Assembly (NCBI GenBank): GCA_016188475.1
Contig: JACPHT010000006.1
Span: forward strand, 2,330 to 66,329
From: Candidatus Uhrbacteria bacterium
GTDB taxonomy: Bacteria; Patescibacteriota; Patescibacteriia; UBA9934; GWF2-40-263
Length of the DNA: 64,000 nt
Direction of reading: 5' to 3'
The position numbers were made by a program, and so were the translations under genes. The notes under the pieces are model-generated. The model did no database searches, was not told the origin of the DNA, and saw only the letters and a list, made by a program, of their open reading frames with translations. This document shows, one piece after another, positions 7,225 to 63,310 of the stretch (positions within the stretch are counted from its first letter, which is position 1; each line of letters begins with the position of its first letter).

Positions 7225-7473
7225 ATGTCTTATACAATTTATATTCTGCGCAGTCTCAAAAATGAGAAACGATACATTGGTTATACTGGGAAAAGTGTTG
7301 ATGAAAGATTCCATGAACATTTATCCGGTACGAATCAATGGACTCGACAGAACGGTCCGTTCATTTTGATTCATACTGAGTCATTCAATGACAAAGAATC
7401 AGCCATTAAACGTGAACGTTTTCTAAAAAGCGGTCAAGGTCGTAAATGGCTTGATGAAAATATTCGGGGGTAG
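7225..7473 (+). CDS. GIY-YIG nuclease superfamily protein (YhbQ/UPF0213-like)
   Basis: YTIYILRS...RYIGYTGKSVDERFHEHLSG matches the GIY-YIG core. Its stop codon TAG (7471-7473) lies inside the tRNA 5' exon. Confidence 0.7.
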   Translation: MSYTIYILRSLKNEKRYIGYTGKSVDERFHEHLSGTNQWTRQNGPFILIHTESFNDKESAIKRERFLKSGQGRKWLDENIRG

Positions 7474-7782: not shown

Positions 7783-7971
7783 AAAAACAACCATCGTAAG
7801 TAAGATGGTTGTTTTTTGGCTCCGAACCCTGAACGAAATCCGAACTTTTTTTAGCGAAAATCCGAACGCTGAATTTTGAAAAATTTTTAAGCTCGGGCGG
7901 GCAAAAAGGAAGGAGGTTGGGGGGAAGGAATTTTTGCCCGCCCTCGCTTTTCCGCCGCCGCCGAATTTCGT
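7782..7971. repeat. left arm (IR-L) of a ~190-bp near-perfect inverted repeat flanking the 5-kb cassette
   Basis: The reverse complement of 12953-13143 matches this arm with one substitution (ggaaggagg vs ggaagaagg) and one extra A in the A-run. Contains the terminator hairpin and a nested GGGCGGGCAAAAA...TTTTTGCCCGCCC hairpin. Confidence 0.85.
7783..7820 (+). terminator. rho-independent terminator after the tRNA (aacaaccatc-gtaagtaa-gatggttgtt + T6)
   Basis: A perfect 10-bp stem followed by TTTTTT directly after CCA. It forms the outer part of the left inverted repeat. Confidence 0.6.
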
Positions 7972-12952: not shown

Positions 12953-13143
12953 ACGAAATTCGGCGGCGGCGGAAAAGCGAGGGCGGGCAAAAATTCCTTC
13001 CCCCCAACCTTCTTCCTTTTTGCCCGCCCGAGCTTAAAAATTTTTCAAAATTCAGCGTTCGGATTTTCGCTAAAAAAAGTTCGGATTTCGTTCAGGGTTC
13101 GGAGCCAAAAAACAACCATCTTACTTACGATGGTTGTTTTTTT
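12953..13143. repeat. right arm (IR-R) of the ~190-bp inverted repeat
   Basis: Reverse complement of 7782-7971 (see IR-L). Confidence 0.85.
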
Positions 13144-13200: not shown

Positions 13201-14067
13201 TTAACCATGCTGATGCAGAACCGCGTATGAAAGACCTGGCATGAGAGATCCGTCATCAATGTCGACAGCGAGCATACCGCCAGCGAAGAGCATTGGATAT
13301 GACGAATCCATATAGTGCCAAGTGAATGGCACAGTCGAGATGTGCGAAGGTACTGACCCGAGCGCGATGCCGTGGATGCCCCAGCGTCCTTCCTCAGCAC
13401 GTGTCCAGTCGAACGCGTCATCCGACTTTTCTATTAGAACACCTTTTGGTGACTTGTTGCGTCTGACAGATCTTTCATCCTCTGATTGGAGAATGAAGTT
13501 GACGAACGTGCTTATCCAACCATTGAAAGTATCAGAGCCAGACTCGGAGCTGAACTTGTAGAGTGACTTCCAAAAGTATTCATCGAGTATTTCGCCACCG
13601 GCTTGATCAACGATCTTTTGTAGAACCGGCAAAAGATGCTTGAAGTAGCGACCAAGCGGACGGGCAAAAACCTCGGAGAGTTGCATCGCTGCGTTCAGGA
13701 CCTTGCGGTAGTCCTCCGGTGTGCCTGCAAGGCGAATATCCGGTATTCCACATGACGTATAGGTACTATAGTCGTAGAACTTCTGCGTCGCGTTCATGAA
13801 CACGACGAGACTTGCCGCATCTGTCTCTGGCGTAGCAGTCGTGAATCCTGGCAACATGTGTTGCATGATACCTGGCGGAACGACATCCTCGAGCTTGGGT
13901 CGGAACAATACGATCGCTTCACCCCATGGACTCTTTGGGTCGCCGTAGCACAGGTTGTCGTGTTGCACGTCTATTTTCACTTTATCGCGCGAACGTGTGA
14001 ACAGGTGAGAGAACTCCTCGGGATTCAGGTTCACGGCTGTCGCGACCTCGTGCGAGATTAGGAACAT
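13201..14067 (-). CDS. hypothetical protein, GC-rich; possibly the C-terminal part of a gene interrupted by an in-frame TGA
   Basis: 288-aa ORF at about 52% GC in a roughly 38% GC genome. ORF 14110..14367 is in the same frame, separated only by a TGA at 14110-14112 plus 14 codons. Confidence 0.5.
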   Translation of the reverse strand: MFLISHEVATAVNLNPEEFSHLFTRSRDKVKIDVQHDNLCYGDPKSPWGEAIVLFRPKLEDVVPPGIMQHMLPGFTTATPETDAASLVVFMNATQKFYDYSTYTSCGIPDIRLAGTPEDYRKVLNAAMQLSEVFARPLGRYFKHLLPVLQKIVDQAGGEILDEYFWKSLYKFSSESGSDTFNGWISTFVNFILQSEDERSVRRNKSPKGVLIEKSDDAFDWTRAEEGRWGIHGIALGSVPSHISTVPFTWHYMDSSYPMLFAGGMLAVDIDDGSLMPGLSYAVLHQHG

Positions 14068-24850: not shown

Positions 24851-25001
24851 AGCATCGGACGTTGAATATGCTATTGCATAAACATCGACCAATCAGTTTG
24901 TTCAAGCAAACGGAACGCTTGGAGCAAGCGCTGTTTGGGAAGTTATTGGAACATCAAGCGGACAATGGGGAAACAACACTGGAATATCTGGAAAAGTTCA
25001 T

Positions 25002-26759
25002 GTGAGCGGACTTACTTCTCCTGTTGCAAATTATATTTTCAAAGTTAAATCGAGAAATCCGAGCGACGCGGCGCACGCTGTTTCATCTGAATCTGCATAT
25101 TCCGCAACAGCACAAATTACAAATACTGCTCCGTCAATTTCACTTGGCTCAATTGCGCAAACTACCGATGGCACTGATTATGTAACAATAAATTATACTG
25201 GAACTGATGGGCAAGGTGACGTAAATAGTTTGACCGTTTTTGAATATTCTATAGACAACTCAACGTGGAGCACAATGACAGAAAAAACAGGAGTCGGATC
25301 GGACGGAACTTCGAATTTGGTGTTCTTGCCAAGCGGAAGCGCGCATGACTTCATGTGGGATGTCGGGACAGATCTGCCTAGTGTTGAAGATTCTACAGTG
25401 TATATTCGACTTCGTTCTTCAGACACATTAACGACGAGCACTTTGGTAACTTCATCGGCTTTTGAGATAGACACTGTTTTGCCTGTTGTTTCAAGTGTTT
25501 CAGCTTCACAAAATTTAGGCGCCCGCACTGTTGTATTCACATACACGCTCACTGACGCGAACAGCTCTTTGGTTGAATTGGATATATCAGAAGACGGAGG
25601 TTCAACTTGGAACGTAACAGACACATCAGTATCAGGTCATGTTGGTTCAGGAGTGACGCCTGGAAGCAAAACAATAACGTGGAATGCTGGAGCTGATTTT
25701 GATAATCAATACCAAACAGACTTGCAGGTTCGAATACGCGCGAAAGATACTTTTGGAAATCAAGGCACGAACACGTCATCATCAAATTTTACAGTTGATA
25801 CAAACGACCCTTCTGTTACAAATGTTAGTGCTGTTCAAGACAGCATGCTCGATACGTTTACATTTCATTACGACGTGAGTGAAGATGTTGGAAACGTCGC
25901 AATCGGACTTGAAATTTCAAGCAACGGAGGAACAACTTGGACAATACCAACAACAACAGTTACGGGTGATACTGGATCTGGAATTGCTCCTGGAGCAAAC
26001 AAAACAATAACTTGGAATGCGGCTGTGGATTACAACAGTCAGGAAAAAACAAACATGAAAATTCGCGTGACAGCAACGGATGGATTTAGCAATACTTCAA
26101 ACGCGAGCTCTGCAAATTTTTCACTTGACACACTTGCACCTCGTGTAACAAATGTCGGAGCATCGCAAACTCTCGGAACAACAAACATTTCAATCACATA
26201 CACTCTTGCTGATCAAAATGTGTCGCTCGTTGAAATTGATATTTCAGATGATGGCGGAGCGACTTGGGCAGTGACAGATACAAGCGTTACTGGAGATGTT
26301 GGAACTGGAGTTTCTTCAGGGAGCAAAACAATCACATGGAATGCCGGAGTTGATTTTGATGAACAAAATCAAGCTGACATTCAAGTTAGAGTTCGCGCGA
26401 AAGATGTCTATGAGCATCAAAGCGCAAATGTTGCTTCTTCAAATTTTTCGCTTGATACTTTGAATCCAGTTGTTCTTACAACTTCCAATCTCCAATCTCA
26501 ACCAAACGCCGGAGACACAACTGTTTTGATTGGAGGTTCGTTCACTGAAACAAATCCAAACACTAATGATTTTTATGTTGCGATAAACGGAGGAGCTTAT
26601 GGTTCGGCAACTTCAGGAACTACAAACACATCTTCACCTTCAAACCAAGCAACTTCTGTCGGCTCAACACTTGACGGAAACGATTACATTTCAAAAGTTA
26701 AAATCACTCACACTGATGATTATGGTCAAACAGTTGATAATGAAAAATGTGACAGTTAA
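25002..26759 (+). CDS. giant cell-surface protein, fragment 2
   Basis: Same repeat architecture. Upstream, the same frame is open from about 24795 to the TAA at 24879-24881, where the paralogous repeats have GAA. A +1 A in the A5 run at 26743-26747 then shifts the frame. Confidence 0.55.
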   Translation: MSGLTSPVANYIFKVKSRNPSDAAHAVSSESAYSATAQITNTAPSISLGSIAQTTDGTDYVTINYTGTDGQGDVNSLTVFEYSIDNSTWSTMTEKTGVGSDGTSNLVFLPSGSAHDFMWDVGTDLPSVEDSTVYIRLRSSDTLTTSTLVTSSAFEIDTVLPVVSSVSASQNLGARTVVFTYTLTDANSSLVELDISEDGGSTWNVTDTSVSGHVGSGVTPGSKTITWNAGADFDNQYQTDLQVRIRAKDTFGNQGTNTSSSNFTVDTNDPSVTNVSAVQDSMLDTFTFHYDVSEDVGNVAIGLEISSNGGTTWTIPTTTVTGDTGSGIAPGANKTITWNAAVDYNSQEKTNMKIRVTATDGFSNTSNASSANFSLDTLAPRVTNVGASQTLGTTNISITYTLADQNVSLVEIDISDDGGATWAVTDTSVTGDVGTGVSSGSKTITWNAGVDFDEQNQADIQVRVRAKDVYEHQSANVASSNFSLDTLNPVVLTTSNLQSQPNAGDTTVLIGGSFTETNPNTNDFYVAINGGAYGSATSGTTNTSSPSNQATSVGSTLDGNDYISKVKITHTDDYGQTVDNEKCDS

Positions 26760-29700
26760 TAAAAACGCGGTTGAAACAGATGGTTTGGAATATGCGATTT
26801 TTGAAACAAGTCAGAATCAATATGTTCAGACAAACGGAACGCTTGGCGCGAGTGCGATTTGGCGAACAACAGCGCAGTGGGGAACAGTGACGGTAAACGG
26901 CCTTGCGAATGATTCATATACTTATCAATTTAAAGTCAAATCTCGAAACACAAGCGATGGCTCTAACGCGGCATCAAGCGAAAGCGCGCTTTCAGGAGGC
27001 GCATCGTCTGCGAATCAATCTCCAGTGATCGTGCTTGGATCAATTGCTCAAACAACAGACGGTTCGAGATACGTCACTATAAACTATACTGGATCAGACT
27101 TGGAAAGCGAAAATACGACGATTATAACAGCCGAATACTCTACGAACGGTACGACATGGAACAACATGACGGAAAAGTCTGGAGTTGGAAGCGATGGAAA
27201 AACAGGCCTTGTTTTCGTATATACAGGAACAGCGCACGATTTCATGTGGGATGTAGGAACTGATCTTGCTAACGTTGAAGACTCGACTGTTTTTATTCGC
27301 TTGCAAGCAAATGATGGAACGTCTGACGGAGGAGTTGCAACATCAAGTGCGTTTACAATTGACGCAAAAAATCCAGTGATCTCATCAGTATCAGCTGAAC
27401 AACAAAATGGTTCAAACAATGTTGTGTTCAGTTATACACTTACTGATCTTTCAAATAGTCTTGTTGAAATTGATATTTCAGACGATGGGGGAGCTACATG
27501 GAATGTCACTGATACTTCAGTCACTGGCGATATCGGCGCAGGGGTTTCACCAGGAACAGGAAAAACAATAACATGGAATCCCGGAGTTGATTTTAGCGGA
27601 CAAGAACAGTCAGATTTGCGTGTGCGAGTTCGCGCAACAGATATTTTTGGAAATGCTGGCGCAAACGCGTCGTCAGCGAATTTTTCAGTTGATACAGAAT
27701 CGCCGCGTATCACAAATGTTACAGCTTCTCAAGATTCCGGATTGAATACTGTAACAATTGGATATGATATCGAGGACGCAAATGTTTCAAATGTTGTTAT
27801 AGAAATTTCCGAAGACAACGGATTAACATGGGGAGTCGCAACAACAACTCTTTCTGGAGATGTCGGAGCCGGTATTACATCTGGAATTGGCAAAATAGTT
27901 TCGTGGAATGCGGCCGTTGATTTCCCGAATCGTGAACAATCAGGAATGATGATTCGCGTGCGCGCGACTGATTCTCACAATAATTTAAGCGGCAATGTTT
28001 TTTCACCTTCATTTTCTGTTGACACTCTTGCGCCAGTTATTTCTAGTGTTTCCGCTTCGCAAACCTTGGGTTCTGACAATGTCGTCTTTACTTACAATTT
28101 ATCTGATAGCGGTTTTGTAAATATAGAGCTTGATATTTCACAAGACAGCGGCGCTACTTGGACAGTGACGGATACGTCTGTAATAGGTGCTATAGGATCA
28201 GGACAAACAACGGGAAATGGAAAAACAATCACATGGAATGCCGGAGTTGATTACCCAGATGAAGATCGTTCAACAATGCGAGTTCGAATTCGCGGAACCG
28301 ATGGATTCAGCAATATGAGCGTGAATGTTGAATCATCTGATTTTATAATTGACACATTTGATCCAACACCAAACGTCACTTCCAATCTCCAATCTCAACC
28401 AAACGCCGGAGACACAACTGTTTTGATTGGAGGGTCGTTCACTGAAACAAATCCAAACACTAATGATTTTTATGTTGCGATAAACGGAGGAGCTTATGGT
28501 TCGGCAACTTCAGGAACTACAAACACATCTTCACCTTCAAACCAAGCAACTTCTGTCGGCTCAACTCTTGACGGAAACGATTATATTTCAAAAGTTAAAA
28601 TCACTCACACTGATGATTACGGACACAGTGTTACAAATCAAAACACATCACCAAATACATCTTTGAAGTATGTGAAGCCTTACACTCCGCAAGCGCCAAC
28701 AGTTAATAATCCTCAAAATACATCAGTTGATGTTACGATCATTCCACATGCGTCTGAAACATCTGGTTTGGAATACGCAATTTTTGAAACAACAACTGGA
28801 AAATATGTGAAAGCCAACGGCACGCTTGACACAAGCCCTGTTTGGAGAACCACAACCGCATGGGGGACAATCACAGTGACAGGCCTATCTTCACCTGTTG
28901 CTCAATATAGTTTCAAAGTGAAATCAAGAAACACATCAGACACGCTTAACGCGGTTTCTAGCGAAAGTAATTTTTCTTCTTCAAACGCAATCGCAAATAC
29001 TTCTCCATCTATCTCGATTACAAGTGTTGCTCAACAAACGTCAACAAGTTACGCGCTGATTGAATACATTGGGACAGATACTCAAAACGACACAAATAAT
29101 TTAACGACTTTTGAATATTCAACCGACGGTTCATCATGGAATGTAATGACTGAAAAATCCGGAGTTGGAAGTGATGGAACTTCAGGGTTAATTTTCACTT
29201 CAAGCGGCGCGGCATTCACATTTGGATGGGATATTGCGGCAGACTTACCAAACACAGGCGACCAAACGGTTTACGTTCGTTTGCAATCAACCGATACGCT
29301 TGCAAACAGCAACATGGCTACTTCTTCGGCGTTTGCGGTAGACACGCTTGGTCCTGTTATTTCAAATATTCAAATAAGTCAGGCACCAGGTACAAACATA
29401 ATGACATTTACTTACGATCTTTCAGACAGCACAGCCGCGAATAATACGGTGACATTGCAAATTTCGTCTGACGCTGGTTTGACATGGACAGTTCCAACAA
29501 CTTCCGCAACAGGAGATGTAGGCTCTGGTGTTTCGTCCGGACTTGCTCGTTCAATAACATGGAACGCCGGAGTTGATTTTGACAATCAAGAAAATTCAAC
29601 AATGCAAATTAGATTGCAAGGAACGGATGTGTATGACAACAGTGGCGCAATTTCAACGTCTTCGAACTTTACTGTCGATACAAAATCTCCTGTTGTTTCA

Positions 29701-32700
29701 GGAGTATCAGCAGTTCAAGTCGATGATTCAAAAAATGTTCAAGTCAATTACACTTTGAGCGATCTATCTTCTGGTGGTTTGTTGGTTGAGTTCAGTATTT
29801 CATCAGATAACGGAACAACATGGACAGTTCCTGCTGTCACATACAGCGGAGATGTTGGATCAGGACAAACAACAGGCGCAAAACAATTTGTTTGGAATGC
29901 GGGAGCTGACTTTGATGATGAATATCAGGACGACATGAAAGTCCGCGTTCGCGCTCGAGATTATTTTGCAAATCAAGGCGTGTACACATCGTCATCGGTA
30001 TTTGAAGTTGATACAAGAGCCTCTGTTGTTTCTGATGTTTCTGCTGTTCAGAATACAGGAGCGCGCACAGTGAACATCGCTTACGATCTAACTGACGACA
30101 CTTCAAGCAATTTGAATGTTGAGTTTGAAGTTTCAGAAGATAATGGAATCAGCTGGACAATAGCGCACAGTTCATCAACAGGAAACGTTGGTTCAGGACA
30201 AACAACCGGAGCTGGAAAGATAATTGTTTGGGATGCCGGAACTGATTTTGACGGACAATTTCAAACTGACATGAAAGTTCGCGTTCGCGCAACTGATCGT
30301 TTTACAAATCAAGGGAGTTTTGTAGATTCGTCTGCGTTTACGCTCGATACTGCCAACCCAGTTGTATCAAATGTTTCAGGTTCTCAAATTTTAGGTTCAG
30401 AAACAGTATCGATTTCTTATAATCTTACAGATGGCACCTCAACCAATCTTTCAACAGTTCTTGAAATTTCTTCAGACAATGGAACGACTTGGACAGTTCC
30501 AACAACTTCTGCCTCTGGAAATATTGGATCAGGCCAGACAACGGGCGCTGGAAAAACAATAACATGGAATGCAGGAGTTGATTTTGATTCAAACGCAAAC
30601 TCAAACATGGAAGCTAGAATTCGCGCTAACGATTCATTTTCAAATCAGGGAAATTTTACAAGTTCATCAAACTTTTCTGTTGACACAAAAGATCCGGCAA
30701 CACTTGCATCATCAGATTTGCAAGCGCAACCTCATGCTGGGGATACTTCAGTTTTGATAGGCGGATCATTTATCGAGACAAGTCCTAACACGAATAATTT
30801 TTTCGTAGCGGTGAATGGAAACGGATATGGTTCGGCTTCAGCTGGAGATTCTGACACGACCTCGCCTTCAAATCATTTGACGCCTGTTGGAATCACGCTG
30901 AAAGGCAACAATCGCATTGGAAAAGTTAAGATCGTTCACGCTGATGATTATGGACATTCATTTACAAATGAGAATTTGTCTCCAGCGACTGCTTTCAAAT
31001 TTGTAAAGCCTTATACGCCGATGGCTCCGACTGTTTCAAATCCAACAACGAATTCTGTTGATGTTGTTGTAAACAAAAATGCGAATGAAGTTTCTGGTTT
31101 GGAATATGCGATTTATGAAACTACTCAAAATAAATATGTTCAAGCCAATGGAACGCTTGGCGCGAGCGCGGTTTGGCAAACCGGAGCTGTTTGGGGAACT
31201 GTTACAGTTACTGGTTTAAACTCTCCTGTTTCAAGTTACATGTTTAAGACAAAGTCGAGAAACAGTGCGGACGTCGCGCACGCCGCTACCAGCGAAAGTG
31301 ATTTGTCATCATCGGCATCTGTTTCTCAAACAGCACCATCAATCACGATTGATTCTGTTTCTCAATCTTCAGGTAACGGTTACGTCATAATAAATTATAC
31401 CGGGGTCGATGAGCAAAATGATGTTAGCAATATTTCAGTAAAAGAATACTCACTCAACGGAATTGATTGGTTTGACATGACAGAAAAATCAGGAGTCGGA
31501 AGTGACGGAATCGCGGGTCTTGAGTTTACAACAACAGGCGCGTCATTTATTTTTGCTTGGGATGCGCAAACCGATGTTTCAGATTTTGAGGATTTTATTT
31601 ATGTCAGATTAAGAGCCAATGATGGAGTTCAAGACGGTAATATAGAAACAAGTTCCGCGTTTGCTTTGGATTTGAAATCGCCAGTTGTTTCAAATGTTTC
31701 TGCTACACAGTTAGCAGGGACAACTTCAATAGAAATCTCATACGATGTTTCCGATTTTACTTCAAATATATCTGTTGCTTTTGAAATTTCTTCAGACAAT
31801 GGCTCAACATGGACAGTGCCTACAACTTCAGCCACAGGAGATTTTGGTTCAGGGCAGACAACGGGAAATGGAAAAATGATCACGTGGAACGCTGATCTTG
31901 ATTTTGACGGACAATATCAAACTGACATGAAAGTTCGCGTTCGAGCAACTGATAGTTTCAGCAATCAAGGAGATTTCAGTGAATCACCAGCTTTCGCTGT
32001 TGAGACAGCAAACCCTGTTGTGTCGAATCTATCAGCCGTACAAATGGCAGGAACAAGCGATGTTGCGGTATTTTACGACCTGTCAGACGACACATCAACA
32101 GATTTGACAGTTGTCTTTGATATTTCTGATGACAACGGCTCAACATGGACTGTTGTTGACACTTCCGTGACTGGAGACATCGGTTCTGGTCAAACAACAG
32201 GAATAAACAAGTCGTTCATTTGGGATGCTGGAACTGATTTTGCAGAACAATATCAAACTGACATGAAAGTTCGCGCTCGAGCAACTGATAGTTTCAGCAA
32301 TCAAGGAGATTTTACCGAATCATCATCATTCAGTGTTGACACAGATGTTCCTGTTGTTTCAAACGTAACTTCTTCTCAAGCAAGCGATTCAGCAAGCGTT
32401 ACGATAACTTACGATCTTTCAGACAACACATCAACAGATTTGACAGTTGTCTTTGATATCTCTGATGACAACGGCTCAACATGGACTGTTGTTGACACTT
32501 CCGTGACTGGAGACATCGGTTCTGGTCAAACAACAGGAATTAACAAGCTGTTCATTTGGGATGCTGGAACTGATTTTGGAAATGAATATCAAACTGACAT
32601 GAAAGTTCGAGTTAGAGCGACTGATAGTTTCAGCAATCAAGGAGATAACAGCGAATCCAATGTGTTTGTTCTTGATACATCCGCACCAGTGATCTCGAAC

Positions 32701-34509
32701 GTTTCAGCATCTCAAAACTTAGGATTTGGAACGGTTACAATTTCGTACGACATTTCAGACGACGTGTTGACTGATTTAATAGTTGATTTGAATGTCTCAA
32801 ATGATGGTGGACTTACTTGGACAGTTTCCCATCCGTCAGTTTCTGGAGATATTGGTTTAGGACAAACCGCAGGAGTTGGTAAAACAATTATTTGGAATGC
32901 CGGAGCTGATTTCGACGATCAAGATTTGTCCACAATGAGGATTCGACTTATTGGCACTGATAGTTTTGGGAACATAAGTTCTCCTTTTGTTTCGACGGAT
33001 TTTGCCGTAGACACGATGGATCCGATTGGACTTGCAACATTTGGAAAGTTTTTGAGCACGAGTACGTCAGTCACAATGAATTGGGGATCGGTTGTTGACA
33101 CAAACTTCGACCATTACGAATTATGGTACGGAAATAATCAAACAGACGTTCAAAATAGGTCTGGTTCTGCTTTAATTTGGTCTGTTGATGATGATTCAGA
33201 TTTGGATAATTCTTTAACGGCTTCTACAACAATCACTGGCATCACACTTGAAGCGGATTTATTTGTGAAGATTTGGGCTGTTGACTCATTCGGACACGAA
33301 ATTACAGCGCAAGATGTAAATGTGTTTACTCCTGTTGCGGCCGCTGGAGCTGTTGGTGGAGGGCAACTTTTAGACTTGATTCCTCCGAATAAACCTGTTT
33401 TGAATCCAGTTGCGACTCCAACAAACAATACAACCGCGATAATAGCCGGATTATCAGAACCAAACTCTTATATTGATCTGTACGACAATGGAGTTTTTGT
33501 TAAGCGTTTATCTTCTCAAGCAAATGCTAGCGGATTTTTCTCCGATGATTTAATTTTTGGAGAGGGAAGCCATCTGCTAACCGCAACAGCAACAGATTTA
33601 TCAGGAAATGTTAGTGAACAATCTGACTCCATCAATCTTGTTGTTGACTTGACCGCTCCAAACAAACCGACCGCATTTAATAAGAACGATTCTGAAATCT
33701 TTGAGATCTCGCCTCTTATTTTTGGAACTTCTGAACCTTTTGCGCTTATAAAAATTGTAATTGACGACACAAACGCAGTTACAACGTCAGCAGATCAAAA
33801 CGGTTATTGGCGATATTTACTTCCAACAGACTTAGCTTTGAATTTAGGAATTCATACGTTTGAATTAACTGCTTCTGATTTGGCTGGAAATGTCAGTGAG
33901 CCTGCCTTATTAACACTACACGTCGTTATACAACCAATTTTACCGCCATCTATATTCACTCCAAGTATTCCTACAATACCAACCATTTCAACGCCTGGAA
34001 TCGGATTATTGCCTGGGGCCGGACTATTAACCGTTCTGCCAACAATAGCTCCACCTGTACCAGTTTCTGAAATAATCAAAGAACAAGTCGAAGCGATTGA
34101 ATTACCGGGTTTGCCAACGCCTGATATTAAATTAGCAAGCACAGTTTATGACGGAAGAAATTTTGTGTTCAGCGGAACTGCGATACCAAACAGTGACGTG
34201 GTTGTCTATATTCACAGCGACCAGGCTCTGATATACACAAGCCACGCAAACGGTAAAGGCGATTGGAATGTGATTCATTCACAGGACGCGACTGAACTTT
34301 CAAAAGGCGATCATACTATCTATGCGATCTCGATTGATCCTATCGCAAAAATAAAAAGCGCCGTGGCGCCGATTAAAATTTTCACAGTTAATAAAAGCTT
34401 ATTGGTTTCAATGTTTAATTATCTGAATTTGCGAACAACAATCGCAAGTGTACTTGTACTTCTCGTGTGTATTTGGTGGTTATACAGATTAAGAAAACGA
34501 AATGCCTAA
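26740..34509 (+). CDS. giant cell-surface protein, fragment 3 (about 2590 aa; at least 20 tandem Ig-like/FN3-like domains; C-terminal TM anchor)
   Basis: Long periodic repeat architecture. C-terminal IASVLVLLVCIWWLYRLRKRNA. The first 47 codons of the track ORF (26599-26739) are an out-of-frame overlap with fragment 2. Confidence 0.65.
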   Translation: MKNVTVNKNAVETDGLEYAIFETSQNQYVQTNGTLGASAIWRTTAQWGTVTVNGLANDSYTYQFKVKSRNTSDGSNAASSESALSGGASSANQSPVIVLGSIAQTTDGSRYVTINYTGSDLESENTTIITAEYSTNGTTWNNMTEKSGVGSDGKTGLVFVYTGTAHDFMWDVGTDLANVEDSTVFIRLQANDGTSDGGVATSSAFTIDAKNPVISSVSAEQQNGSNNVVFSYTLTDLSNSLVEIDISDDGGATWNVTDTSVTGDIGAGVSPGTGKTITWNPGVDFSGQEQSDLRVRVRATDIFGNAGANASSANFSVDTESPRITNVTASQDSGLNTVTIGYDIEDANVSNVVIEISEDNGLTWGVATTTLSGDVGAGITSGIGKIVSWNAAVDFPNREQSGMMIRVRATDSHNNLSGNVFSPSFSVDTLAPVISSVSASQTLGSDNVVFTYNLSDSGFVNIELDISQDSGATWTVTDTSVIGAIGSGQTTGNGKTITWNAGVDYPDEDRSTMRVRIRGTDGFSNMSVNVESSDFIIDTFDPTPNVTSNLQSQPNAGDTTVLIGGSFTETNPNTNDFYVAINGGAYGSATSGTTNTSSPSNQATSVGSTLDGNDYISKVKITHTDDYGHSVTNQNTSPNTSLKYVKPYTPQAPTVNNPQNTSVDVTIIPHASETSGLEYAIFETTTGKYVKANGTLDTSPVWRTTTAWGTITVTGLSSPVAQYSFKVKSRNTSDTLNAVSSESNFSSSNAIANTSPSISITSVAQQTSTSYALIEYIGTDTQNDTNNLTTFEYSTDGSSWNVMTEKSGVGSDGTSGLIFTSSGAAFTFGWDIAADLPNTGDQTVYVRLQSTDTLANSNMATSSAFAVDTLGPVISNIQISQAPGTNIMTFTYDLSDSTAANNTVTLQISSDAGLTWTVPTTSATGDVGSGVSSGLARSITWNAGVDFDNQENSTMQIRLQGTDVYDNSGAISTSSNFTVDTKSPVVSGVSAVQVDDSKNVQVNYTLSDLSSGGLLVEFSISSDNGTTWTVPAVTYSGDVGSGQTTGAKQFVWNAGADFDDEYQDDMKVRVRARDYFANQGVYTSSSVFEVDTRASVVSDVSAVQNTGARTVNIAYDLTDDTSSNLNVEFEVSEDNGISWTIAHSSSTGNVGSGQTTGAGKIIVWDAGTDFDGQFQTDMKVRVRATDRFTNQGSFVDSSAFTLDTANPVVSNVSGSQILGSETVSISYNLTDGTSTNLSTVLEISSDNGTTWTVPTTSASGNIGSGQTTGAGKTITWNAGVDFDSNANSNMEARIRANDSFSNQGNFTSSSNFSVDTKDPATLASSDLQAQPHAGDTSVLIGGSFIETSPNTNNFFVAVNGNGYGSASAGDSDTTSPSNHLTPVGITLKGNNRIGKVKIVHADDYGHSFTNENLSPATAFKFVKPYTPMAPTVSNPTTNSVDVVVNKNANEVSGLEYAIYETTQNKYVQANGTLGASAVWQTGAVWGTVTVTGLNSPVSSYMFKTKSRNSADVAHAATSESDLSSSASVSQTAPSITIDSVSQSSGNGYVIINYTGVDEQNDVSNISVKEYSLNGIDWFDMTEKSGVGSDGIAGLEFTTTGASFIFAWDAQTDVSDFEDFIYVRLRANDGVQDGNIETSSAFALDLKSPVVSNVSATQLAGTTSIEISYDVSDFTSNISVAFEISSDNGSTWTVPTTSATGDFGSGQTTGNGKMITWNADLDFDGQYQTDMKVRVRATDSFSNQGDFSESPAFAVETANPVVSNLSAVQMAGTSDVAVFYDLSDDTSTDLTVVFDISDDNGSTWTVVDTSVTGDIGSGQTTGINKSFIWDAGTDFAEQYQTDMKVRARATDSFSNQGDFTESSSFSVDTDVPVVSNVTSSQASDSASVTITYDLSDNTSTDLTVVFDISDDNGSTWTVVDTSVTGDIGSGQTTGINKLFIWDAGTDFGNEYQTDMKVRVRATDSFSNQGDNSESNVFVLDTSAPVISNVSASQNLGFGTVTISYDISDDVLTDLIVDLNVSNDGGLTWTVSHPSVSGDIGLGQTAGVGKTIIWNAGADFDDQDLSTMRIRLIGTDSFGNISSPFVSTDFAVDTMDPIGLATFGKFLSTSTSVTMNWGSVVDTNFDHYELWYGNNQTDVQNRSGSALIWSVDDDSDLDNSLTASTTITGITLEADLFVKIWAVDSFGHEITAQDVNVFTPVAAAGAVGGGQLLDLIPPNKPVLNPVATPTNNTTAIIAGLSEPNSYIDLYDNGVFVKRLSSQANASGFFSDDLIFGEGSHLLTATATDLSGNVSEQSDSINLVVDLTAPNKPTAFNKNDSEIFEISPLIFGTSEPFALIKIVIDDTNAVTTSADQNGYWRYLLPTDLALNLGIHTFELTASDLAGNVSEPALLTLHVVIQPILPPSIFTPSIPTIPTISTPGIGLLPGAGLLTVLPTIAPPVPVSEIIKEQVEAIELPGLPTPDIKLASTVYDGRNFVFSGTAIPNSDVVVYIHSDQALIYTSHANGKGDWNVIHSQDATELSKGDHTIYAISIDPIAKIKSAVAPIKIFTVNKSLLVSMFNYLNLRTTIASVLVLLVCIWWLYRLRKRNA

Positions 34510-36757: not shown

Positions 36758-37756
36758 TCAGTTGGAGTTTTGTTTTTCAACGACCATCAGTGCGATTGTT
36801 TCTCCAATCGTGAAAGTTAGTGTTCGTTTTTCGCTGTTTTGTTTTTCGGGTCCTTGTTTTGTGGATTCTGGCCAAACATAGACATCACCATCAAGCACTA
36901 GCCTTGTATCAGACATTCTGATTATTGCCGTGCGGATTGGTTGGTTGTAACTCTTGCGCTTGATCCAGAATGGGACAAGTCCGAACCATACAAAAGGTGA
37001 GGCAAGCGCAAGGCTTCGCCAACCTCCCCAGTATGCCGCGCTGTAGTATTCGCCCATGTTTGGAATCCCCCCAAATGGCTGACACGATGCTAGCAGTTTA
37101 GGAATCGTGCTGAACGCGAACCCGACGAATGACTTTTTTGTGCAGATGGCTGTGCCAAGAATCATTTCTCCATCGACTATTTTGAGTCGTCCGTGAAGTT
37201 TGCGAATCGTGTCTGATGCAACAGAAAGTGCCGCCATTATGATGATCTGCAGAACTCTGAAAAATCCACCTTTGCCGACATTCTCATACCACTGCAGAAT
37301 ATCGCTGATAACTCCGCCAGCTACAACTGCGGCATATCGTTTTGTATTCGTGACAGAATCATGCACGCAAACTGGTTGCCAGTTTTTCCAATCGAGTTTG
37401 ATCTTGTTTGAGAAAATCCCTGCAAGATTTTTGATCGGATCTTTGCTTGGCAAACCATGGAATTTAGTCATGTAGCAGAATTGTCCGCCTCCAACAGAGA
37501 TAAGCGCTGGTCTAAGTTCTGGCTGGAGCGCCGCAATCCAGTTGAGCACGTTGTTGAATGTTCCATCGCCACCGACAACGTAAACGAAGTCGACAGTGTG
37601 TTTTTGGGAAAGAGCGTCGAGCGCGCCGATGACTTTATCAGCGCCTGAAATGTCTATGATGTGCGCGTATTTTGAAAATCTGTCGCGCACGAGCTGGCGA
37701 ATGCGACGATTCTGGCGAAGCCGTTTGGCTTCAGGGTTTACTACGATTACACGCAC
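36758..37756 (-). CDS. diacylglycerol-kinase-catalytic-domain lipid kinase (YegS/DagK-like)
   Basis: VVGGDGTF motif. Confidence 0.6.
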   Translation of the reverse strand: MRVIVVNPEAKRLRQNRRIRQLVRDRFSKYAHIIDISGADKVIGALDALSQKHTVDFVYVVGGDGTFNNVLNWIAALQPELRPALISVGGGQFCYMTKFHGLPSKDPIKNLAGIFSNKIKLDWKNWQPVCVHDSVTNTKRYAAVVAGGVISDILQWYENVGKGGFFRVLQIIIMAALSVASDTIRKLHGRLKIVDGEMILGTAICTKKSFVGFAFSTIPKLLASCQPFGGIPNMGEYYSAAYWGGWRSLALASPFVWFGLVPFWIKRKSYNQPIRTAIIRMSDTRLVLDGDVYVWPESTKQGPEKQNSEKRTLTFTIGETIALMVVEKQNSN

Positions 37757-40886: not shown

Positions 40887-40972
40887 AAAGATAATACTTG
40901 ATCGTTCGCTTACCGTCAAATTTAGCAAAAAGATAAGTCAATTTTATATTATTTCTCTGCTCAAATCAACAA

Positions 40973-41130
40973 TTGATCGTCCGTTTCCTCCGTTCGTCGA
41001 CATTCGCAGACGGCCAGTATAGACGTTTGGTAATCATCATCGTTTCTCGCCGTCGAGAAATAAGCCGCCGACGCTTACGTTGGTTTTCATCAACGTCCAC
41101 GGCGGCGGTCAAGAACGGAGGAACCGGACG
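40973..41130. repeat. ~160-nt highly structured element at the edge of GC-rich island A, containing a conserved 75-nt motif
   Basis: Outer arms gatcgtccgtttcctccgttc (40973-40993) and gaacggaggaaccggacgatc (41110-41130) are reverse complements with one mismatch. Inner hairpins tttctcgccgtcgagaaa and gccgccgacg...cgtccacggcggcgg. The core at 41049-41120 recurs at 54955-55030. Confidence 0.5.
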
Positions 41131-41191
41131 ATCATAAATAAAATGAACCTCCGCTGACAGTGTGTCAGACAGAGGTTCGAGAGCGACAGGG

Positions 41192-51547: not shown

Positions 51548-51574
51548 GCGACAGCAAAGGATCTTGAATAAACA

Positions 51575-51676
51575 AAGATCGTGATGCTACATCTCCGGGC
51601 CAACGCCGTGCCTGCCTTTGGCAGGGACTCCTCGCCGTTGTTCCCTGCGACGTAGCATCACGCTCTTTGTTTTTTT
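51575..51676 (+). terminator. long structured hairpin terminator with a conserved core (...CCAACG...CGCCGTTGTTC...)
   Basis: 18-bp outer stem aaagatcgtgatgctacatc / gacgtagcatcacgctcttt, followed by T7. The core is shared with 63226-63310. Confidence 0.5.
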
Positions 51677-51757
51677 GATATTCATTTTTCCGAGTGGAAT
51701 TGAAAGAGTTGTTGGAAACAAAAAGCAGTAATGAAAGATTCACTACTGCAAAGAGAG

Positions 51758-52780
51758 CTAGCCGACATAGCGACGCTTAAATTCATTTGGGTGTGATGAG
51801 TTTAACCCGGCCTCAATGTCTTTGATGCACTGTCGCAGGAGTGCTCCAATGATTCTACCCTTGGCTTCGTAAACTCCACCTAGGTAGCTGTCCCGGAGTT
51901 GCGCAGCCATCGAGATTCTGCTCGCGTCTTCACGAAGGTAAGCATCTAGTAATGCTGTATAGATCCCTTTCCACTGCCTGGTCTTGACGCATTCGCGCAT
52001 CTCGCGTGTGATTGGATTTCCCAAGGCAGCGATCTTTCTTACCTTGATTGCTGCGATTAGTTCAGTTAGTCCATTTCTTTCTATTGAGTCCTCGGTCATT
52101 TTCGCTATGTACGCATCTGGATCATCAAAGAATTCGACCAACTGGGTTGGATTAAGCCTTTGACGTCCTTGTTGTCCATCGTCTCGATCTCCACTGCTCT
52201 TTTGTACGTCTCTTCGTTCGCGCCCCGTATCGTTTCTACGGCTCATCTCGTCTCCCTGAGGTTGTGATGCAGGTTGTTTCGATTGTACACCAGCAGGCGT
52301 GGCTGGAAGAATCGGTGTTGTGCGAGGCGGTTGTGCAACTTGCACCGGGCCGCTCAACATCCGACTTGCCCCTGATTGGACACTGACTGTTGCTGTGTCA
52401 GCAACCGGTTCTACGGCCGGTTGAACAACATCGATCGGTTCAGCCGGCACAGCTGCTTTCTGTTTGTGATTTTCCGCGATTTCTGCCAGGCCGAGTTTTC
52501 GCGGATCCTCGTCTTTTAGTTCGGCGACGTATGCATCAGAATCAATACAATACTGCAGAAGTGCATTTTGCACTCGGATACAGTACGCCTTACCTTCGTC
52601 TGATACGTAATTGGAAGAAAGAATTTCCTCCAACTCCTCATCTGTTGGTTCGATCCTTGAGATAAGAATGTTGCGAAGCTCGTCTGTTGGCTCGTCATCG
52701 CCGAAGAAGGCGAAGACGGCGTCAAGATAAGTAGGCATTTTTTCCTCCCTCGGCTCAAAACCGAGATTGAAACCTACCAT
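51758..52780 (-). CDS. hypothetical protein (GC-rich island B), acidic with P/Q-rich linker
   Basis: 340-aa ORF at about 55% GC. No recognised motifs. True start may be MPTYLD (52738). Confidence 0.4.
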   Translation of the reverse strand: MVGFNLGFEPREEKMPTYLDAVFAFFGDDEPTDELRNILISRIEPTDEELEEILSSNYVSDEGKAYCIRVQNALLQYCIDSDAYVAELKDEDPRKLGLAEIAENHKQKAAVPAEPIDVVQPAVEPVADTATVSVQSGASRMLSGPVQVAQPPRTTPILPATPAGVQSKQPASQPQGDEMSRRNDTGRERRDVQKSSGDRDDGQQGRQRLNPTQLVEFFDDPDAYIAKMTEDSIERNGLTELIAAIKVRKIAALGNPITREMRECVKTRQWKGIYTALLDAYLREDASRISMAAQLRDSYLGGVYEAKGRIIGALLRQCIKDIEAGLNSSHPNEFKRRYVG

Positions 52781-52869
52781 AAATTAGTCAGAATGTCAAG
52801 CAATCCTTGACATTTTTTTGATTTTCTGCTAAATTCATTCTCTGGCAAAAGCCAGTTTGAAAGGGAAAA

Positions 52870-54411
52870 ATGGAACGAAAGCAATTGTTGCTTCAGGAAT
52901 CTGGTTTGATCGTCAAGGGCGGTGGTGCTACGAAACCGCCGACCGCGGCATCAAAGGGCGAAATCGCACAGCCGTCTCGTTTCACCCAGATGCTCGCGAT
53001 CTGGGGCGAGCTCATTGATATCGCGGTTCTGACAGACAACAGGCGTCGTGTTCCGATCGAAGTGCGCAAGCGCGAAATGACGCGTCGATTCGTCCGCGAT
53101 CCGCGCGATCCGCAAGTTCCTCTTCTCGTTAAAGCGATGATCTTCGCTGAAAACGTGACTCGATTCAATCGGGAAACCAAGGAGCATGAACTTCAACCCG
53201 GCATTGGACTCGGGTACAAGGCAGAGATTCAGGTTTCTGTCAACAAAGGAAGTGACGAGACAGTCAAGGCTGTTCCGCACATTCTCGTTGACGGAGCCGG
53301 CGGAATGATTCCGTACGGCACATTCGAGGAGTCTGGTGGAAAGACGGTCGTGAACGCGCGCGAACATTTTTGCATGGTTCTGTGGCCAATGAAGAAAGGT
53401 CAGCCGTTCAGACTCCTGCCGCTCGGTCTCGCGTCTGCTTCACGGCTCGATATGTGGAACCGCGTGGCACAGGGTCTTCCAGGCCGCGGTCTTCCGACAA
53501 TCGAGCCAATCCGCCATAACCTTCTTGCCAAGGACGGTGCTCGCTACCTCGTGTACACGCCGCCAGGAATGTGGCAGTTCGATGGCGAAGAAGGCAAGGC
53601 GAGCTACCACTACGGCCACATCTGTGGCCAGACAGCTCGCGTTATCGAAAAGGGCGGATTTCCGCCGTATGACGACGAAGAAAACTGCACGTTCTCCGAA
53701 CAGAGAGTGTTTCTCGTTGAGCTTGGCGAGCGTTCGATCGGCCTGCAATACGTGGGTCGGAAGGGCAAGGTCAAGCTTCTCGAAGGTACTATCGATCTCG
53801 GTCAATCTCTCGCGGTTGAACCGTTCGAAGCGCTCGGAGTGTCGGTTCTCACAGCCAATCCGAGCAAGCAGTCCCGAACAGCTTTCGAGCTGGCAGGGCG
53901 TGGTGCGTTCACCCTGGACAATCCGCTCTTCGCCTACGCCGTCAGGATAGGACTGGTTGATCCAGTTGTGCTCGAAGATACACAGTCTGTACGTTCTTCA
54001 CTCAATCGGCTTGCGAGTCTCGTTGTTTCAACTCTTCGCGATCAGCTCGATGACATCAAACGGCGAGTTGTGGAACAGCTCTGTCGTGATCTGCTCCCGG
54101 ATTCTGAAATCGTTCTGGATGGCAAGTCGGCCGAAGAAGTTTGGCACCGCAATGGCGGCGAAGATTTCCTCGCAAAATGGATCAACGAGCGGATCGAAGG
54201 CGACTTCGACTGGAGCTCGTGGGTTCACCGCGGAGTTCGGATGGAGCTCCTGAAGAGAATCTCCGAACGCGCTCAGAATGTCGGAACTCCTCCCGCTCTT
54301 CCTGTGACCTTTGTCAATGCGGCTCCTATCGTAGCAGAAGTTCTTGGCCTGGTACCCACGCCAGCCAAGCGCATTCGCAAGCCTCGCGCTTCGAAGCCGG
54401 CACAGGCCTAG
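52870..54411 (+). CDS. hypothetical protein (GC-rich island B), 513 aa
   Basis: Long ORF at about 57% GC. No recognised family. Followed by the hairpin gtagtgatttctttcactac. Confidence 0.45.
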   Translation: MERKQLLLQESGLIVKGGGATKPPTAASKGEIAQPSRFTQMLAIWGELIDIAVLTDNRRRVPIEVRKREMTRRFVRDPRDPQVPLLVKAMIFAENVTRFNRETKEHELQPGIGLGYKAEIQVSVNKGSDETVKAVPHILVDGAGGMIPYGTFEESGGKTVVNAREHFCMVLWPMKKGQPFRLLPLGLASASRLDMWNRVAQGLPGRGLPTIEPIRHNLLAKDGARYLVYTPPGMWQFDGEEGKASYHYGHICGQTARVIEKGGFPPYDDEENCTFSEQRVFLVELGERSIGLQYVGRKGKVKLLEGTIDLGQSLAVEPFEALGVSVLTANPSKQSRTAFELAGRGAFTLDNPLFAYAVRIGLVDPVVLEDTQSVRSSLNRLASLVVSTLRDQLDDIKRRVVEQLCRDLLPDSEIVLDGKSAEEVWHRNGGEDFLAKWINERIEGDFDWSSWVHRGVRMELLKRISERAQNVGTPPALPVTFVNAAPIVAEVLGLVPTPAKRIRKPRASKPAQA

Positions 54412-54494
54412 TTCTCTCGCAGTAGTGATTTCTTTCACTACTGTTTTTTTGTTTTTAATTGACAATTCTTGGTTGAGGGCTATTGAAATATTTT

Positions 54495-54572
54495 TATTAT
54501 TGCCTGAGCCTGTCGAAGACTGTAGGCAAACAAGCCAAATTTTACCCATTCGACAGGCTCAGGGAATAAAAT
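54495..54572. repeat. IPE-1 copy (long hairpin)
   Basis: TATTATTGCCTGAGCCTGTCGAAGACTGTAGGC pairs with CCCATTCGACAGGCTCAGGGAATAAAA. Confidence 0.65.
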
Positions 54573-54954
54573 TTGGCTTTTGTAAGCCTCTCGCTACCAG
54601 GTAGCGAGAAGATATATTCTAATTCACCAATCACACAATTTTTTTTAGAAACAACAGATATTCGTAATCTATTATATGAGCAGTTGCATCATGTTGGAAG
54701 GAGTCGAGGAGGAGTAAAGAAGCCAACTGCTTGGCTTCGTACCTCCGAGACGGGTTGGACGATGTCTGGCTGAAAGCCAGACCGTACAACACCTACGGCG
54801 AAGAGTCCGTTGGCCCGGAGACACGGTTCGATTGTCATATACTCGTCAACCAGTCTGTTGGTTCCATATTCAAATCACATATAAAATTGTTTAGACTCTC
54901 TGTTCGCCGACATCCGGAGCCGACCTGTACAAACACTTGTTAACTACGTCGATT

Positions 54955-55030
54955 CACGTCGGCGAGGACTAAGCCGCCGCCACTAACTCTGGTTGTCATA
55001 AACGTCCACGGCGGCGGTCAAGAACAGATA
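54955..55030. repeat. conserved structured 75-nt motif (second copy), at the right edge of GC-rich island B
   Basis: cgtcggcgaggactaaGCCGCCGCC...aaACGTCCACGGCGGCGGTCAAGAAC. The 3' arm is identical to 41092-41117; the 5' arm differs. Confidence 0.5.
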
Positions 55031-55149
55031 GTCTAAACGATTTTTCCACCTTCTTGACCCTCTTTTCAAAAAACTGTACACTATCGGCGCCTTTTAAAGT
55101 ATTACGCAACGCAGAGATTGCTTCGCTTCGCTCGCAATGACATTGGTTT

Positions 55150-62105: not shown

Positions 62106-63188
62106 ATGTCTATGCCAAATGGTCTTGATCTGCACACAATGCCAATCGCTCAATTGCGATCTTGGCTTCTTGAGCACAATAGGCAACAGAGCGAGATTTT
62201 CTGTGAGCCTGACACCAAAGGGCTTCGCATGCAACATCGAGGCATGCATCCAACGGAATTCATGGCTTTGAAGTGCATGGACGGCCGTCTCAATCTGCCT
62301 CTTATCGCGCAGATTCCGCTTGGAATCGTTCAGCCATTGCGCGGACTTGGTGGAAAATTCGATCTTGGTTGGCCATACCTCGGTGAGGTTGTGACCGACT
62401 GGGTTCGTTACTCCATGGGAAAAGGTCGAGACTGTATTATCCTTGTCACATACCACTGGTCTCGCGGCGACAAGCATCGCGGTTGCCGTGGCTTTGGTTA
62501 TGATGAGGAAGCGGCACGAACTTACACTGTCGAATTTACCGCGCAAGTTGAGAGGATGTTCGGAAAACGACATACGACCGTATACCCAGTTCGGCTCGGC
62601 GTCGAAACCGACGAAGACGCTTTGGTTTTTCACGGTGCCAATGGAAAGGTCTTGGATCTTTCAAAGGCAGATGGATATACCGAAGCTGACCTACGTGTTG
62701 CGCTCATGGATCTATTCCCAGACATGAAACAACGCATGCTGGAGGATTTGCTTCCTCTTGCAGTTGGCAATGTTCGACACATCGCGGAAGTGCGAAAATC
62801 GAATCGGCCAATTGAGGAAGCAGAACACCGTGAGCGAATCATTGGCGCTGGAAGAGGGTTTGATTGGTTGCATATCTTGAACCTCGCGTTCTTGGTTGGC
62901 CCATTTGATCCTGATCTTGCAAAGCCGATTCGAACAGCGGCGAAACTCATTGCTGATAATCTCAAAGCTGGTCGTGTGCCAGATGATGGGATTGTTCTGC
63001 TCACTTGTGCTCCTTATCGTGAGGAAGCCGGATACGATGTTCCGCGCGCTACAGAGAAAGTCATTATGCTTTCAAGGTTTGCTTTGAGTGTGATCGAGGA
63101 CGAGGTTCCAGATCTGAAGGGTCGAGTTCACATGATCACTGGAATTGTGAACCAACACACGCGTAAACTAGATGAGGTCAGTCTCTAG
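62106..63188 (+). CDS. hypothetical protein (GC-rich island C), 360 aa
   Basis: About 52% GC. CMDGR and HRGCRGFG motifs are faintly reminiscent of beta-carbonic-anhydrase CxDxR/HxxCG, but do not match. Confidence 0.45.
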   Translation: MSMPNGLDLHTMPIAQLRSWLLEHNRQQSEIFCEPDTKGLRMQHRGMHPTEFMALKCMDGRLNLPLIAQIPLGIVQPLRGLGGKFDLGWPYLGEVVTDWVRYSMGKGRDCIILVTYHWSRGDKHRGCRGFGYDEEAARTYTVEFTAQVERMFGKRHTTVYPVRLGVETDEDALVFHGANGKVLDLSKADGYTEADLRVALMDLFPDMKQRMLEDLLPLAVGNVRHIAEVRKSNRPIEEAEHRERIIGAGRGFDWLHILNLAFLVGPFDPDLAKPIRTAAKLIADNLKAGRVPDDGIVLLTCAPYREEAGYDVPRATEKVIMLSRFALSVIEDEVPDLKGRVHMITGIVNQHTRKLDEVSL

Positions 63189-63225: not shown

Positions 63226-63310
63226 AGAGCGATTTGTGTCATGTCTCCGTGCCAACGGACTCTTCGCCGTTGTTCACTCCGACATGGCACAAACCGCTCT
63301 TTTTGGTCTT
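63226..63310 (+). repeat. long structured hairpin with the same conserved core as 51575-51676
   Basis: Outer stem agagcgatttgtgtcatgtc / gacatggcacaaaccgctct. Core tccgtGCCAACGg...ctcttCGCCGTTGTTCact. T-runs follow. Confidence 0.45.

Follow-up and report, generated by a model that had tools for sequence, protein, structure and literature searches.

Genomic islands of foreign composition are marked by a sharp local rise in GC content, and in GC at third codon positions (GC3), relative to the host, by genes without known function, and by repeats nearby. These marks are also found in a 64,000-nucleotide stretch of contig JACPHT010000006.1 from a Candidatus Uhrbacteria bacterium of the candidate phyla radiation (CPR)/Patescibacteria; the whole of this stretch is termed the window. 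One block of the window has 52.8% GC, versus 40.3% in the rest, and carries two divergent genes whose predicted products of 513 and 340 amino acids (aa) are identical to NCBI HYV69_01560 and HYV69_01555, respectively. The gene pair differs from genomic islands in that it has no mobility genes, att repeats or transfer RNA (tRNA) anchor, is fixed in position across deep divergence and co-diverges with its surroundings, has not ameliorated, and shows high GC within coding sequences only. At a probability of roughly 0.6, the pair is an old, lineage-specific and vertically inherited Uhrbacteria two-gene module, and not a mobile or recently imported island, as which it had been described in an earlier note on this DNA.

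Protein families of unknown function that are enriched in the CPR were reportedly described by Meheust et al. in 2019. The family of the 513-aa protein (the 513 family) resembles these in being lineage-restricted, conserved, hypothetical and without a Pfam model. Unlike them, it belongs to a module of two genes at a fixed address, which have conserved promoters, encode very fast-evolving proteins and are anomalous in codon composition. Raghavan, Kelkar and Ochman, writing in PNAS in 2012, are said to have found selection that favours higher G+C at synonymous sites independently of tRNA adaptation, and links are known between coding-sequence structure and messenger RNA (mRNA) lifetime. The pair resembles the former case in that its C- and G-ending codons are both raised, unlike the codon use of ribosomal-protein genes, and in that its mRNAs are more folded than synonymous controls. 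It differs in that the effect is gene-specific, very large (GC3 up to 0.88 versus 0.44), of deep evolutionary time and limited to one small family in AT-rich genomes; here it is known from sequence alone.

Genomic position and inheritance

The features that make up the locus of the pair are as follows.

51725–51749, minus strand: intrinsic terminator of the partner gene, an 11-bp stem and T-run (terminator scan)
51758–52738, minus strand: partner gene, 326 aa, in an open reading frame (ORF) that runs to 52780 (orthologue alignments; ratio of nonsynonymous to synonymous divergence, dN/dS)
52739–52869, no strand assigned: divergent control region, AT-rich, 37% GC (promoter scan and locus comparison)
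52870–54411, plus strand: 513-aa gene, subfamily A (family alignments, dN/dS, codon tables)
54419–54444, plus strand: intrinsic terminator of the 513-aa gene, kept in L001, L002 and L005 (terminator scan)
55054–55082, plus strand: promoter of the atp operon, TTGACC-17-TACACT, found in all orthologous loci; start of ordinary host sequence (promoter scan)

Ten related Uhrbacteria loci were recovered for comparison (labelled L001, L002/3, L005, L006, L007, L013/14, L015 and L092). In every one of them the order is MetRS–CvpA–TatD–partner (minus)–513 family (plus)–atpI–atpB–atpE, with a paralogue (minus) before atpI in some lineages, and further upstream, before MetRS, it is (PepA–AhpC–SOD–DUF3179–methylase). 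The close relatives L001, L002/3, L005 and L006 have flanks that are 84–98% identical to those of the window, and L007 also has the pair between tatD and the atp operon. The distant loci L013/14, L015 and L092 share the order at 56–60% identity in TatD and 51–52% in MetRS, with the 513-family protein only 26–29% identical to that of the window. Over 28 locus pairs, identity of the 513 family correlates with that of TatD and CvpA together (Pearson r = 0.93), and drops much faster than flank identity, the pair diverging at several times the pace of its flanks. The same syntenic slot in all 10 recovered loci and the co-divergence with the flanks speak against the claim that the block is an island or element. 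In one relative, two ORFs for small membrane proteins (150 and 91 aa) separate the 513 orthologue from atpI (L002 6019–6746, the same as L003 4406–5133); they have no equivalent in the window.

No presence/absence polymorphism was seen at the site; the pair is in all the recovered loci, which were themselves found via the 513 family. Neither protein has a Pfam mobility domain, and it is TatD and the atp genes that lie next to the pair. There is no tRNA gene in the whole window. Flanking direct repeats of the att kind are absent, the only sequences shared by the flanks being the two terminators of the pair, which are inverted copies of each other and 86% identical. The earlier note placed the block in the same class as a second block of the window, island A. 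No similarity was found between the pair and the island A proteins, and dispersed repeats are all that the two blocks have in common.

The two genes and their products

Both ORFs are present as first read, at 51758–52780 (minus strand, 340 aa) and 52870–54411 (plus strand, 513 aa), and both have orthologues. The orthologues of the 340-aa ORF all start at Met15 of the ORF, after a GGGAGG Shine-Dalgarno sequence, and the partner gene is probably 51758–52738, with 326 aa from the 15th codon. The intergenic spacer would therefore be 131 bp in length (52739–52869), and not the 90 bp of the earlier note. The small ORFs at 54573–54943 have no counterpart in the orthologous spacers and, as had been suspected, are not genes.

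Ratios of dN/dS and synonymous divergence (dS) were computed for both genes against four orthologous loci. The 513-aa gene has a dN/dS of 0.13–0.14 and the partner gene 0.16–0.22, both with a dS of about 1 to above 2 (the 513-aa gene at 1.0–2.0), which is indicative of purifying selection. A profile search of 1.84 billion representatives gave 58 members of the 513 family, of ∼480–640 aa, and these align over the full length at 20–80% identity with in-frame indels; the partner alignments are likewise full-length with in-frame indels. Both ORFs are therefore real genes under purifying selection, and neither chance ORFs nor non-coding RNA.

The 513 family appears confined to one lineage. No homologue of the pair was found outside Uhrbacteria-like contigs, and tblastn searches of phages and plasmids, together with IMG/VR, gave no relatives of the pair. 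A further homologue search with a wide alignment of the 513 family gave close relatives only. With a narrower alignment there was no match in the Genome Taxonomy Database (GTDB) genomes, but its pattern misses even the L001 orthologue, whose genome is in the GTDB set. One family member, P0017 (MEK7997010.1), is on a 2.6-kb contig binned as Planctomycetota and has a cluster mate labelled Patescibacteria; the Planctomycetota label is probably a binning error. A literature search on the locus tags or on codon usage in Patescibacteria found nothing.

The 513-aa protein has a beta-rich N-terminal half and a helical C-terminal half, followed by a linker rich in Pro, Ala and Glu and by a short tail of basic character (KRIRKPRASK). 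Most subfamily-A proteins end in such a linker and then a short patch of basic residues, which in the window is KRIRKPR. R457 is the only residue that never varies across 50 family members; nearly invariant are the start Met, six Pro columns, and a single column each for Gly, Leu and Asn. This pattern points to a structural rather than a catalytic protein. The partner protein is acidic, with an isoelectric point of about 5. Its N-terminal segment (YLDAVFAFFGDDEP) is conserved, its middle is hypervariable, disordered and rich in P/Q and R/D/E/G, and its C-terminus is conserved and helical, with EFKRRYVG as the last residues. Neither protein has a membrane segment or a signal peptide.

Searches of Pfam, PHROGs, NCBIfam, PADLOC and PDB sequences gave no recurrent match for the 513-aa protein, for close relatives of it or for 50 diverse members of the family. 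The partner had none in Pfam, PHROGs or PDB sequences, and profiles of 8 and 6 sequences in the domain searches had the same outcome. The earlier statement that neither protein has recognizable domains is borne out by these negative profile libraries. AlphaFold2 models from alignments of 8 and 5 sequences have predicted local distance difference test scores of 47.9 and 43.8, too poor to use; the alignments were shallow and had been made before the 50-sequence alignment existed. Neither PDB nor viral structures yielded a match at E <= 0.001 when searched by Foldseek with the low-confidence model of the 513-aa protein. Housekeeping homologues of normal GC in CPR relatives would have spoken against a novel function. 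Clear CPR homologues do exist, but they are equally GC-rich and equally uncharacterized. On the searches made, the 513 family is an undescribed Uhrbacteria protein family, new by the absence of matches and not by a demonstrated mechanism, and its fold may yet prove to be a known one.

A second, convergent paralogue (subfamily B) is present between the 513 orthologue and atpI in three loci, with the following positions.

L012 1245–4743: subfamily B paralogue locus
L013 10718–12523: subfamily B paralogue locus
L015 10806–12671: subfamily B paralogue locus

The window clade does not have subfamily B, and tblastn of 54445–55050 found no remnant of it. Subfamilies A and B are 20–27% identical. Between L013 and L015, subfamily B is 61% identical whereas subfamily A is only 32% and the partner 26% identical, with flanks at 74%; subfamily B is thus the slower-evolving of the two.

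The rapid divergence of subfamily A and of the partner might also be that of a conflict module in an arms race, for host interaction or for phage defence or counter-defence. Fast divergence would then represent antagonistic co-evolution, and the GC content would be a side effect. Divergence as steep as that between L013 and L015, the hypervariable disordered middle of the partner, and the duplication and loss of paralogues in the family are all what such a module would show. The selection seen among close relatives is purifying, however (dN/dS 0.13–0.22), the pair is at one fixed locus, unlike the patchy spread typical of defence islands, and the absence of signal peptides and membrane segments does not suggest surface exposure. 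In addition, none of the 50 members of the 513 family matches a PADLOC model, in a scan that did not cover the partner. A conflict module is considered unlikely.

Codon composition and mRNA folding

The earlier note gave 55–57% GC for both genes. This is correct for the 513-aa gene (56.0%), but the 340-aa ORF has 49.8%. The GC3 of the 513-aa gene is 0.59, versus about 0.30 in the flanks. In other loci its orthologues have GC3 values of 0.62, 0.64, 0.68, 0.56, 0.88, 0.77, 0.72, 0.70, 0.68 and 0.64, with flanking genes at 0.27–0.48 where flanks were available; the window clade (0.56–0.68) is among the lowest of the family. The divergent spacer has 33–45% GC in all loci, and GC3 is even along the gene, which shows that the excess is confined to coding sequences. 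First and second codon positions are also raised, with GC1 at 0.66 and GC2 at 0.43 versus about 0.55 and 0.34.

G-ending codons are raised as much as C-ending codons. The AAG/AAA counts are 21/6 in the 513-aa gene versus 27/165 in the flanks, and in L007 they are 38/0 versus 20/52. ORFs read as ribosomal-protein genes from their translations in related loci have GC3 values of 0.21–0.40. Translational codon adaptation was considered as a cause of the high GC3 and rejected, as AAG and other G-ending codons rise too and the ribosomal-protein ORFs remain low. Nor is there a decay of foreign composition with time: the deviation is equal or larger in every lineage at a dS of about 1 or more. With GC3 high in every lineage at synonymous sites that are at or near saturation, amelioration of foreign DNA is no explanation.

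Folding of the mRNAs was compared with that of synonymous codon shuffles within 150-nt windows; whole-gene shuffles gave the same picture. Ten of 11 subfamily-A orthologue mRNAs fold more stably than the shuffles (z = -1.6 to -4.0), as do two subfamily-B genes (-2.9 and -3.7) and the partner gene of the window (-3.2). Seven housekeeping controls have z values from +0.1 to -1.1.

Four other genes of the window are also GC3-rich. These are a CDP-alcohol phosphatidyltransferase gene (3112–3930; GC3 0.51), a DUF4419 gene (13201–14067; 0.58), a diacylglycerol-kinase-like gene (36758–37756; 0.47), and a gene of 360 aa after atpC (62106–63188; 0.47) with a weak CsoSCA-like match and 96% identity to its L001 orthologue. 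An mRNA folding excess like that of the pair is seen in two of these four genes.

A neutral, locus-specific process could be behind the high GC3, namely GC-biased gene conversion or repair, for example between convergent paralogues. It would account for the joint rise of GC1 and GC2 with GC3. Inverted paralogues are present at the locus in several lineages, and the window clade, which has lost the paralogue, has among the lowest GC3 values (0.56–0.68). Against such a process, the spacer between the GC-rich genes stays at 33–45% GC, paralogue B has a GC3 of only about 0.45, and GC3 stays high in single-copy clades. Moreover, at 20–27% identity the paralogues are too diverged for conversion. This explanation appears quite improbable.

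The divergent control region

The shared regulatory region that the divergent arrangement had suggested is supported by two conserved outward promoters predicted in one short spacer. The rightward promoter has a -35 box TTGACA at 52807–52812 and a TG-extended -10 box TAAATT at 52830–52835, with a spacing of 17; it is the best match of the scan (10/12 positions). The leftward promoter mirrors it, its -35 and -10 boxes being the complements of 52794–52799 and 52771–52776, respectively. Back-to-back promoters of the TTGACA-N17-TAAATT type are found in all loci, even where the proteins are ∼27% identical. The spacer is 95% identical to that of L006 over 62 nt while the proteins are 40–60% identical, and is therefore better conserved than the genes. 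A palindrome in the spacer was considered as an operator and rejected: it consists of the two opposed -35 hexamers, which are 7 bp apart in the window and farther apart in L005, L007 and L013.

Short conserved hairpin motifs are present in both 5′ untranslated regions (UTRs), at 52842–52855 for the 513 mRNA and 52749–52765 for the partner mRNA. That of the 513 5′-UTR is a CTGG-loop-CCAG motif just after the -10 box, in most loci read, but the leader fold in the window does not single out the CTGG/CCAG hairpin (z = -1.1). Strong Shine-Dalgarno sequences precede both genes. Taken together, the promoter, UTR and Shine-Dalgarno features suggest that the pair is strongly expressed.

Structured repeats in the spacers

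Bacterial intergenic repeats such as BOX and RUP (pneumococcus), Correia (Neisseria), ERIC and REP/BIME are multi-copy and modular with nested hairpins, have very stable folds, and are often just upstream of operons. The spacers on both sides of the pair contain elements of this kind.

51559–51683, plus strand: long GC-rich hairpin and T-run, fold z = -7.9, between the TatD stop codon (51547) and the partner terminator
54497–54569, no strand assigned: REP-like palindromic hairpin of repeat families D15, D17 and D18, z = -6.9; not part of the pair
54575–54881, no strand assigned: patchwork made up of pieces of repeats, one of them (54795–54823) from the second hairpin family; its small ORFs are not conserved
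54882–55045, plus strand: 164-nt structured repeat "R1", with a 22-bp closing stem and two inner hairpins, fold z = -6.3; directly before the atp promoter

The hairpin at 51559–51683 probably serves as terminator for TatD. It is one member of a dispersed family (core ACGGCGARGAGTCCGYTGGCCCGGAGAC) and does not itself form part of the gene pair. Further copies are at 54795–54823 and 63235–63310 of the window, at L001 9660–9730, at L005 439–524 and 3646–3722, and also in L002. The same ACGGCGARGAGTCCGYTGGCCCGGAGAC hairpin is nested as a module in long forms of the 164-nt repeat (L024, L043, L051, L052 and L070). The REP-like family (TTATTGCCTGAGCCTGTCGAAGG...CCTTCGACAGGCTCAGGCAATAA) has eight window copies at gene ends (38909, 40537, 40611, 43548, 48617, 54492–54574, 56510 and 59164). 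The patchwork at 54575–54881 has no orthologous sequence in L001, L005 or L006 except for a 28-nt hairpin piece, and is partly similar to island A and to an insert in L021.

The 75-nt motif of the earlier note (54955–55030) represents the 3′ half, and the most conserved part, of the 164-nt repeat. In an alignment of 8 copies, 96.5% of the cells are paired. Compensatory changes are found in 17 of 46 pairs, a number reached in 0 of 500 shuffles, with slid controls at 2–6. In the closing stem this applies to 13 of 22 pairs, with a sequence that varies between copies and a pairing that is kept; the same-site copies of the window and L002 differ in this stem by a compensatory A-U to G-C change. By covariance model, the window has exactly two copies, at 54882–55045 and, in island A, at 40972–41136. 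They score about 180 bits on the plus strand versus 31–44 on the minus strand. This strand bias, together with G-U pairs on the plus strand, points to a constraint at the RNA level.

Thirteen further copies of the 164-nt repeat are in other low-GC contigs, including two in the L001 genome (L070 and L079); the loci with the repeat are L021, L023, L024, L028, L043, L045, L049, L051, L052, L070 and L079. The repeat is usually directly upstream of an operon and co-oriented with it. Operons behind it, read from translated ORFs, include rpsG-fusA, rpmA, rpsF-ssb-rpsR, rpsT, metK, lexA and atp.

Rfam has no family for the 164-nt repeat or the hairpins, the best match in the region being 24 bits against a cut-off of 55 bits; in twelve related loci it gave tRNAs only, and in the window nothing but a group I intron outside this region. 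The 164-nt repeat and the hairpins share the generic traits of BOX, Correia and REP elements (multi-copy, intergenic, modular and stably folding), which implies no membership by sequence. Indeed, the 164-nt repeat has no sequence relationship to BOX, RUP, Correia, ERIC or REP. It also lacks the terminal inverted repeats, conserved in all copies, of a miniature inverted-repeat transposable element, since its outer stem differs between copies and covaries. The hairpins and the 164-nt repeat are structured repeats that colonize intergenic spacers and are unrelated to the pair. The hairpin and the 75-nt motif had been taken as the left and right borders of an island; both are independent dispersed repeats, and the 164-nt repeat with its motif is missing from the spacer on the atp side in L001, L005 and L006.

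These data bear on the possibility that the block is a horizontally acquired island or mobile-element remnant, bounded by the hairpin and the structured motif, with a GC content brought from a GC-rich donor. The composition is indeed far from that of the host (53% versus 40% GC), homologues were found only within the lineage, the block has repeats on either side, and synonymous divergence is above that of the flanks. But the slot is the same in all recovered relatives down to ∼50% flank identity, with co-divergence of the flanks, and GC3 is as high or higher in every lineage despite a dS of about 1 or more. The high GC is inside the two coding sequences only and not in the spacer between them; integrase or transposase genes, tRNA and direct repeats are lacking, as are phage, plasmid or viral relatives; and the supposed right border is missing from the same spacer in three relatives. 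An island is very unlikely, and as a recent event it is largely refuted, although acquisition at the very base of the Uhrbacteria could still have taken place. Finally, the ORFs might be taken for frames that are open by chance in non-coding or structural-RNA sequence of high GC, as GC-rich DNA yields long ORFs on either strand and the region has a stable fold. This reading can be set aside in view of a dN/dS of 0.13–0.22 at a dS of about 1 or more, 58 full-length representatives with in-frame indels, the conservation of starts, Shine-Dalgarno sequences and terminators, and the lack of an Rfam match.

Proposed nature of the pair

If the pair is an old, vertically inherited module, its GC3 richness would not be a relic of foreign origin. 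Something that acts on the coding sequence would be maintaining it, with selection on GC content or on general mRNA stability as the likeliest candidate. Both products are proposed to be soluble, non-enzymatic scaffold or binding proteins that act together. Given an acidic partner and a 513-aa protein that combines a flexible linker with a basic tail, involvement of nucleic acid or of an acidic surface is possible. The best inference on function, weakly indicated, is thus a pair that binds or serves as a scaffold and is non-enzymatic. A more specific proposal is that the pair forms a Uhrbacteria-wide cellular scaffold or nucleic-acid-associated complex whose coding sequences are directly selected for GC-rich, highly folded mRNA; this is possible but doubtful.

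Several points weigh against these proposals. All related loci were retrieved via the 513 family itself, and relatives without the pair could not be sampled. The raised GC1 and GC2 would fit a mutational or conversion-type pressure equally well. A folding excess is also found in two of the other GC3-rich genes of the window (z = -2.4 and -2.7), which implies that the excess goes with GC3 richness in general, and one orthologue, L010, has none. Conservation of structure by position is weak, with z < -2 in 7 of 24 windows versus 6 of 72 in four control genes. The functional proposal draws on composition and architecture only, and strong expression is suggested by sequence signals alone.

A distinct RNA element conserved within the coding sequence was considered as a source of the folding and rejected on the weak support of the 7/24 versus 6/72 windows. 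We read the folding as a pressure for general GC content or for foldedness of the coding RNA; a conversion-type process is a less likely cause.

Other elements of the window

The group I intron detected by Rfam is at 7410–7733 (plus strand, 83 bits), and a GIY-YIG endonuclease ORF (7150–7473) overlaps its 5′ end. Inverted repeats of 190 nt at 7782–7971 and 12953–13142, 99% complementary, surround ∼5 kb of DNA with an EcoRI-type adenine methylase gene (8366–9502). This block may be a mobile or invertible restriction-modification cassette. At 22478–34509 there are very large ORFs (790 and 2636 aa) that consist of diverged ∼330-nt units repeated more than 10 times.

Significance

It is routine to interpret a patch of high GC in an AT-rich genome as horizontally transferred DNA, and composition alone would misclassify this pair. 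A gene that is fixed in position and apparently vertically inherited keeps deviant codons at synonymous saturation, and some force on the coding sequence is needed to explain this. If direct selection on folded mRNA is the cause, it would represent a gene-specific regime at synonymous sites, in which composition is an adaptive trait and not a foreign mark. With its rapid evolution, fixed place in the loci examined, strong promoter signals and lack of a detectable relative in the libraries searched, the undescribed pair offers a concrete target for what is specific to these little-known episymbiotic bacteria.

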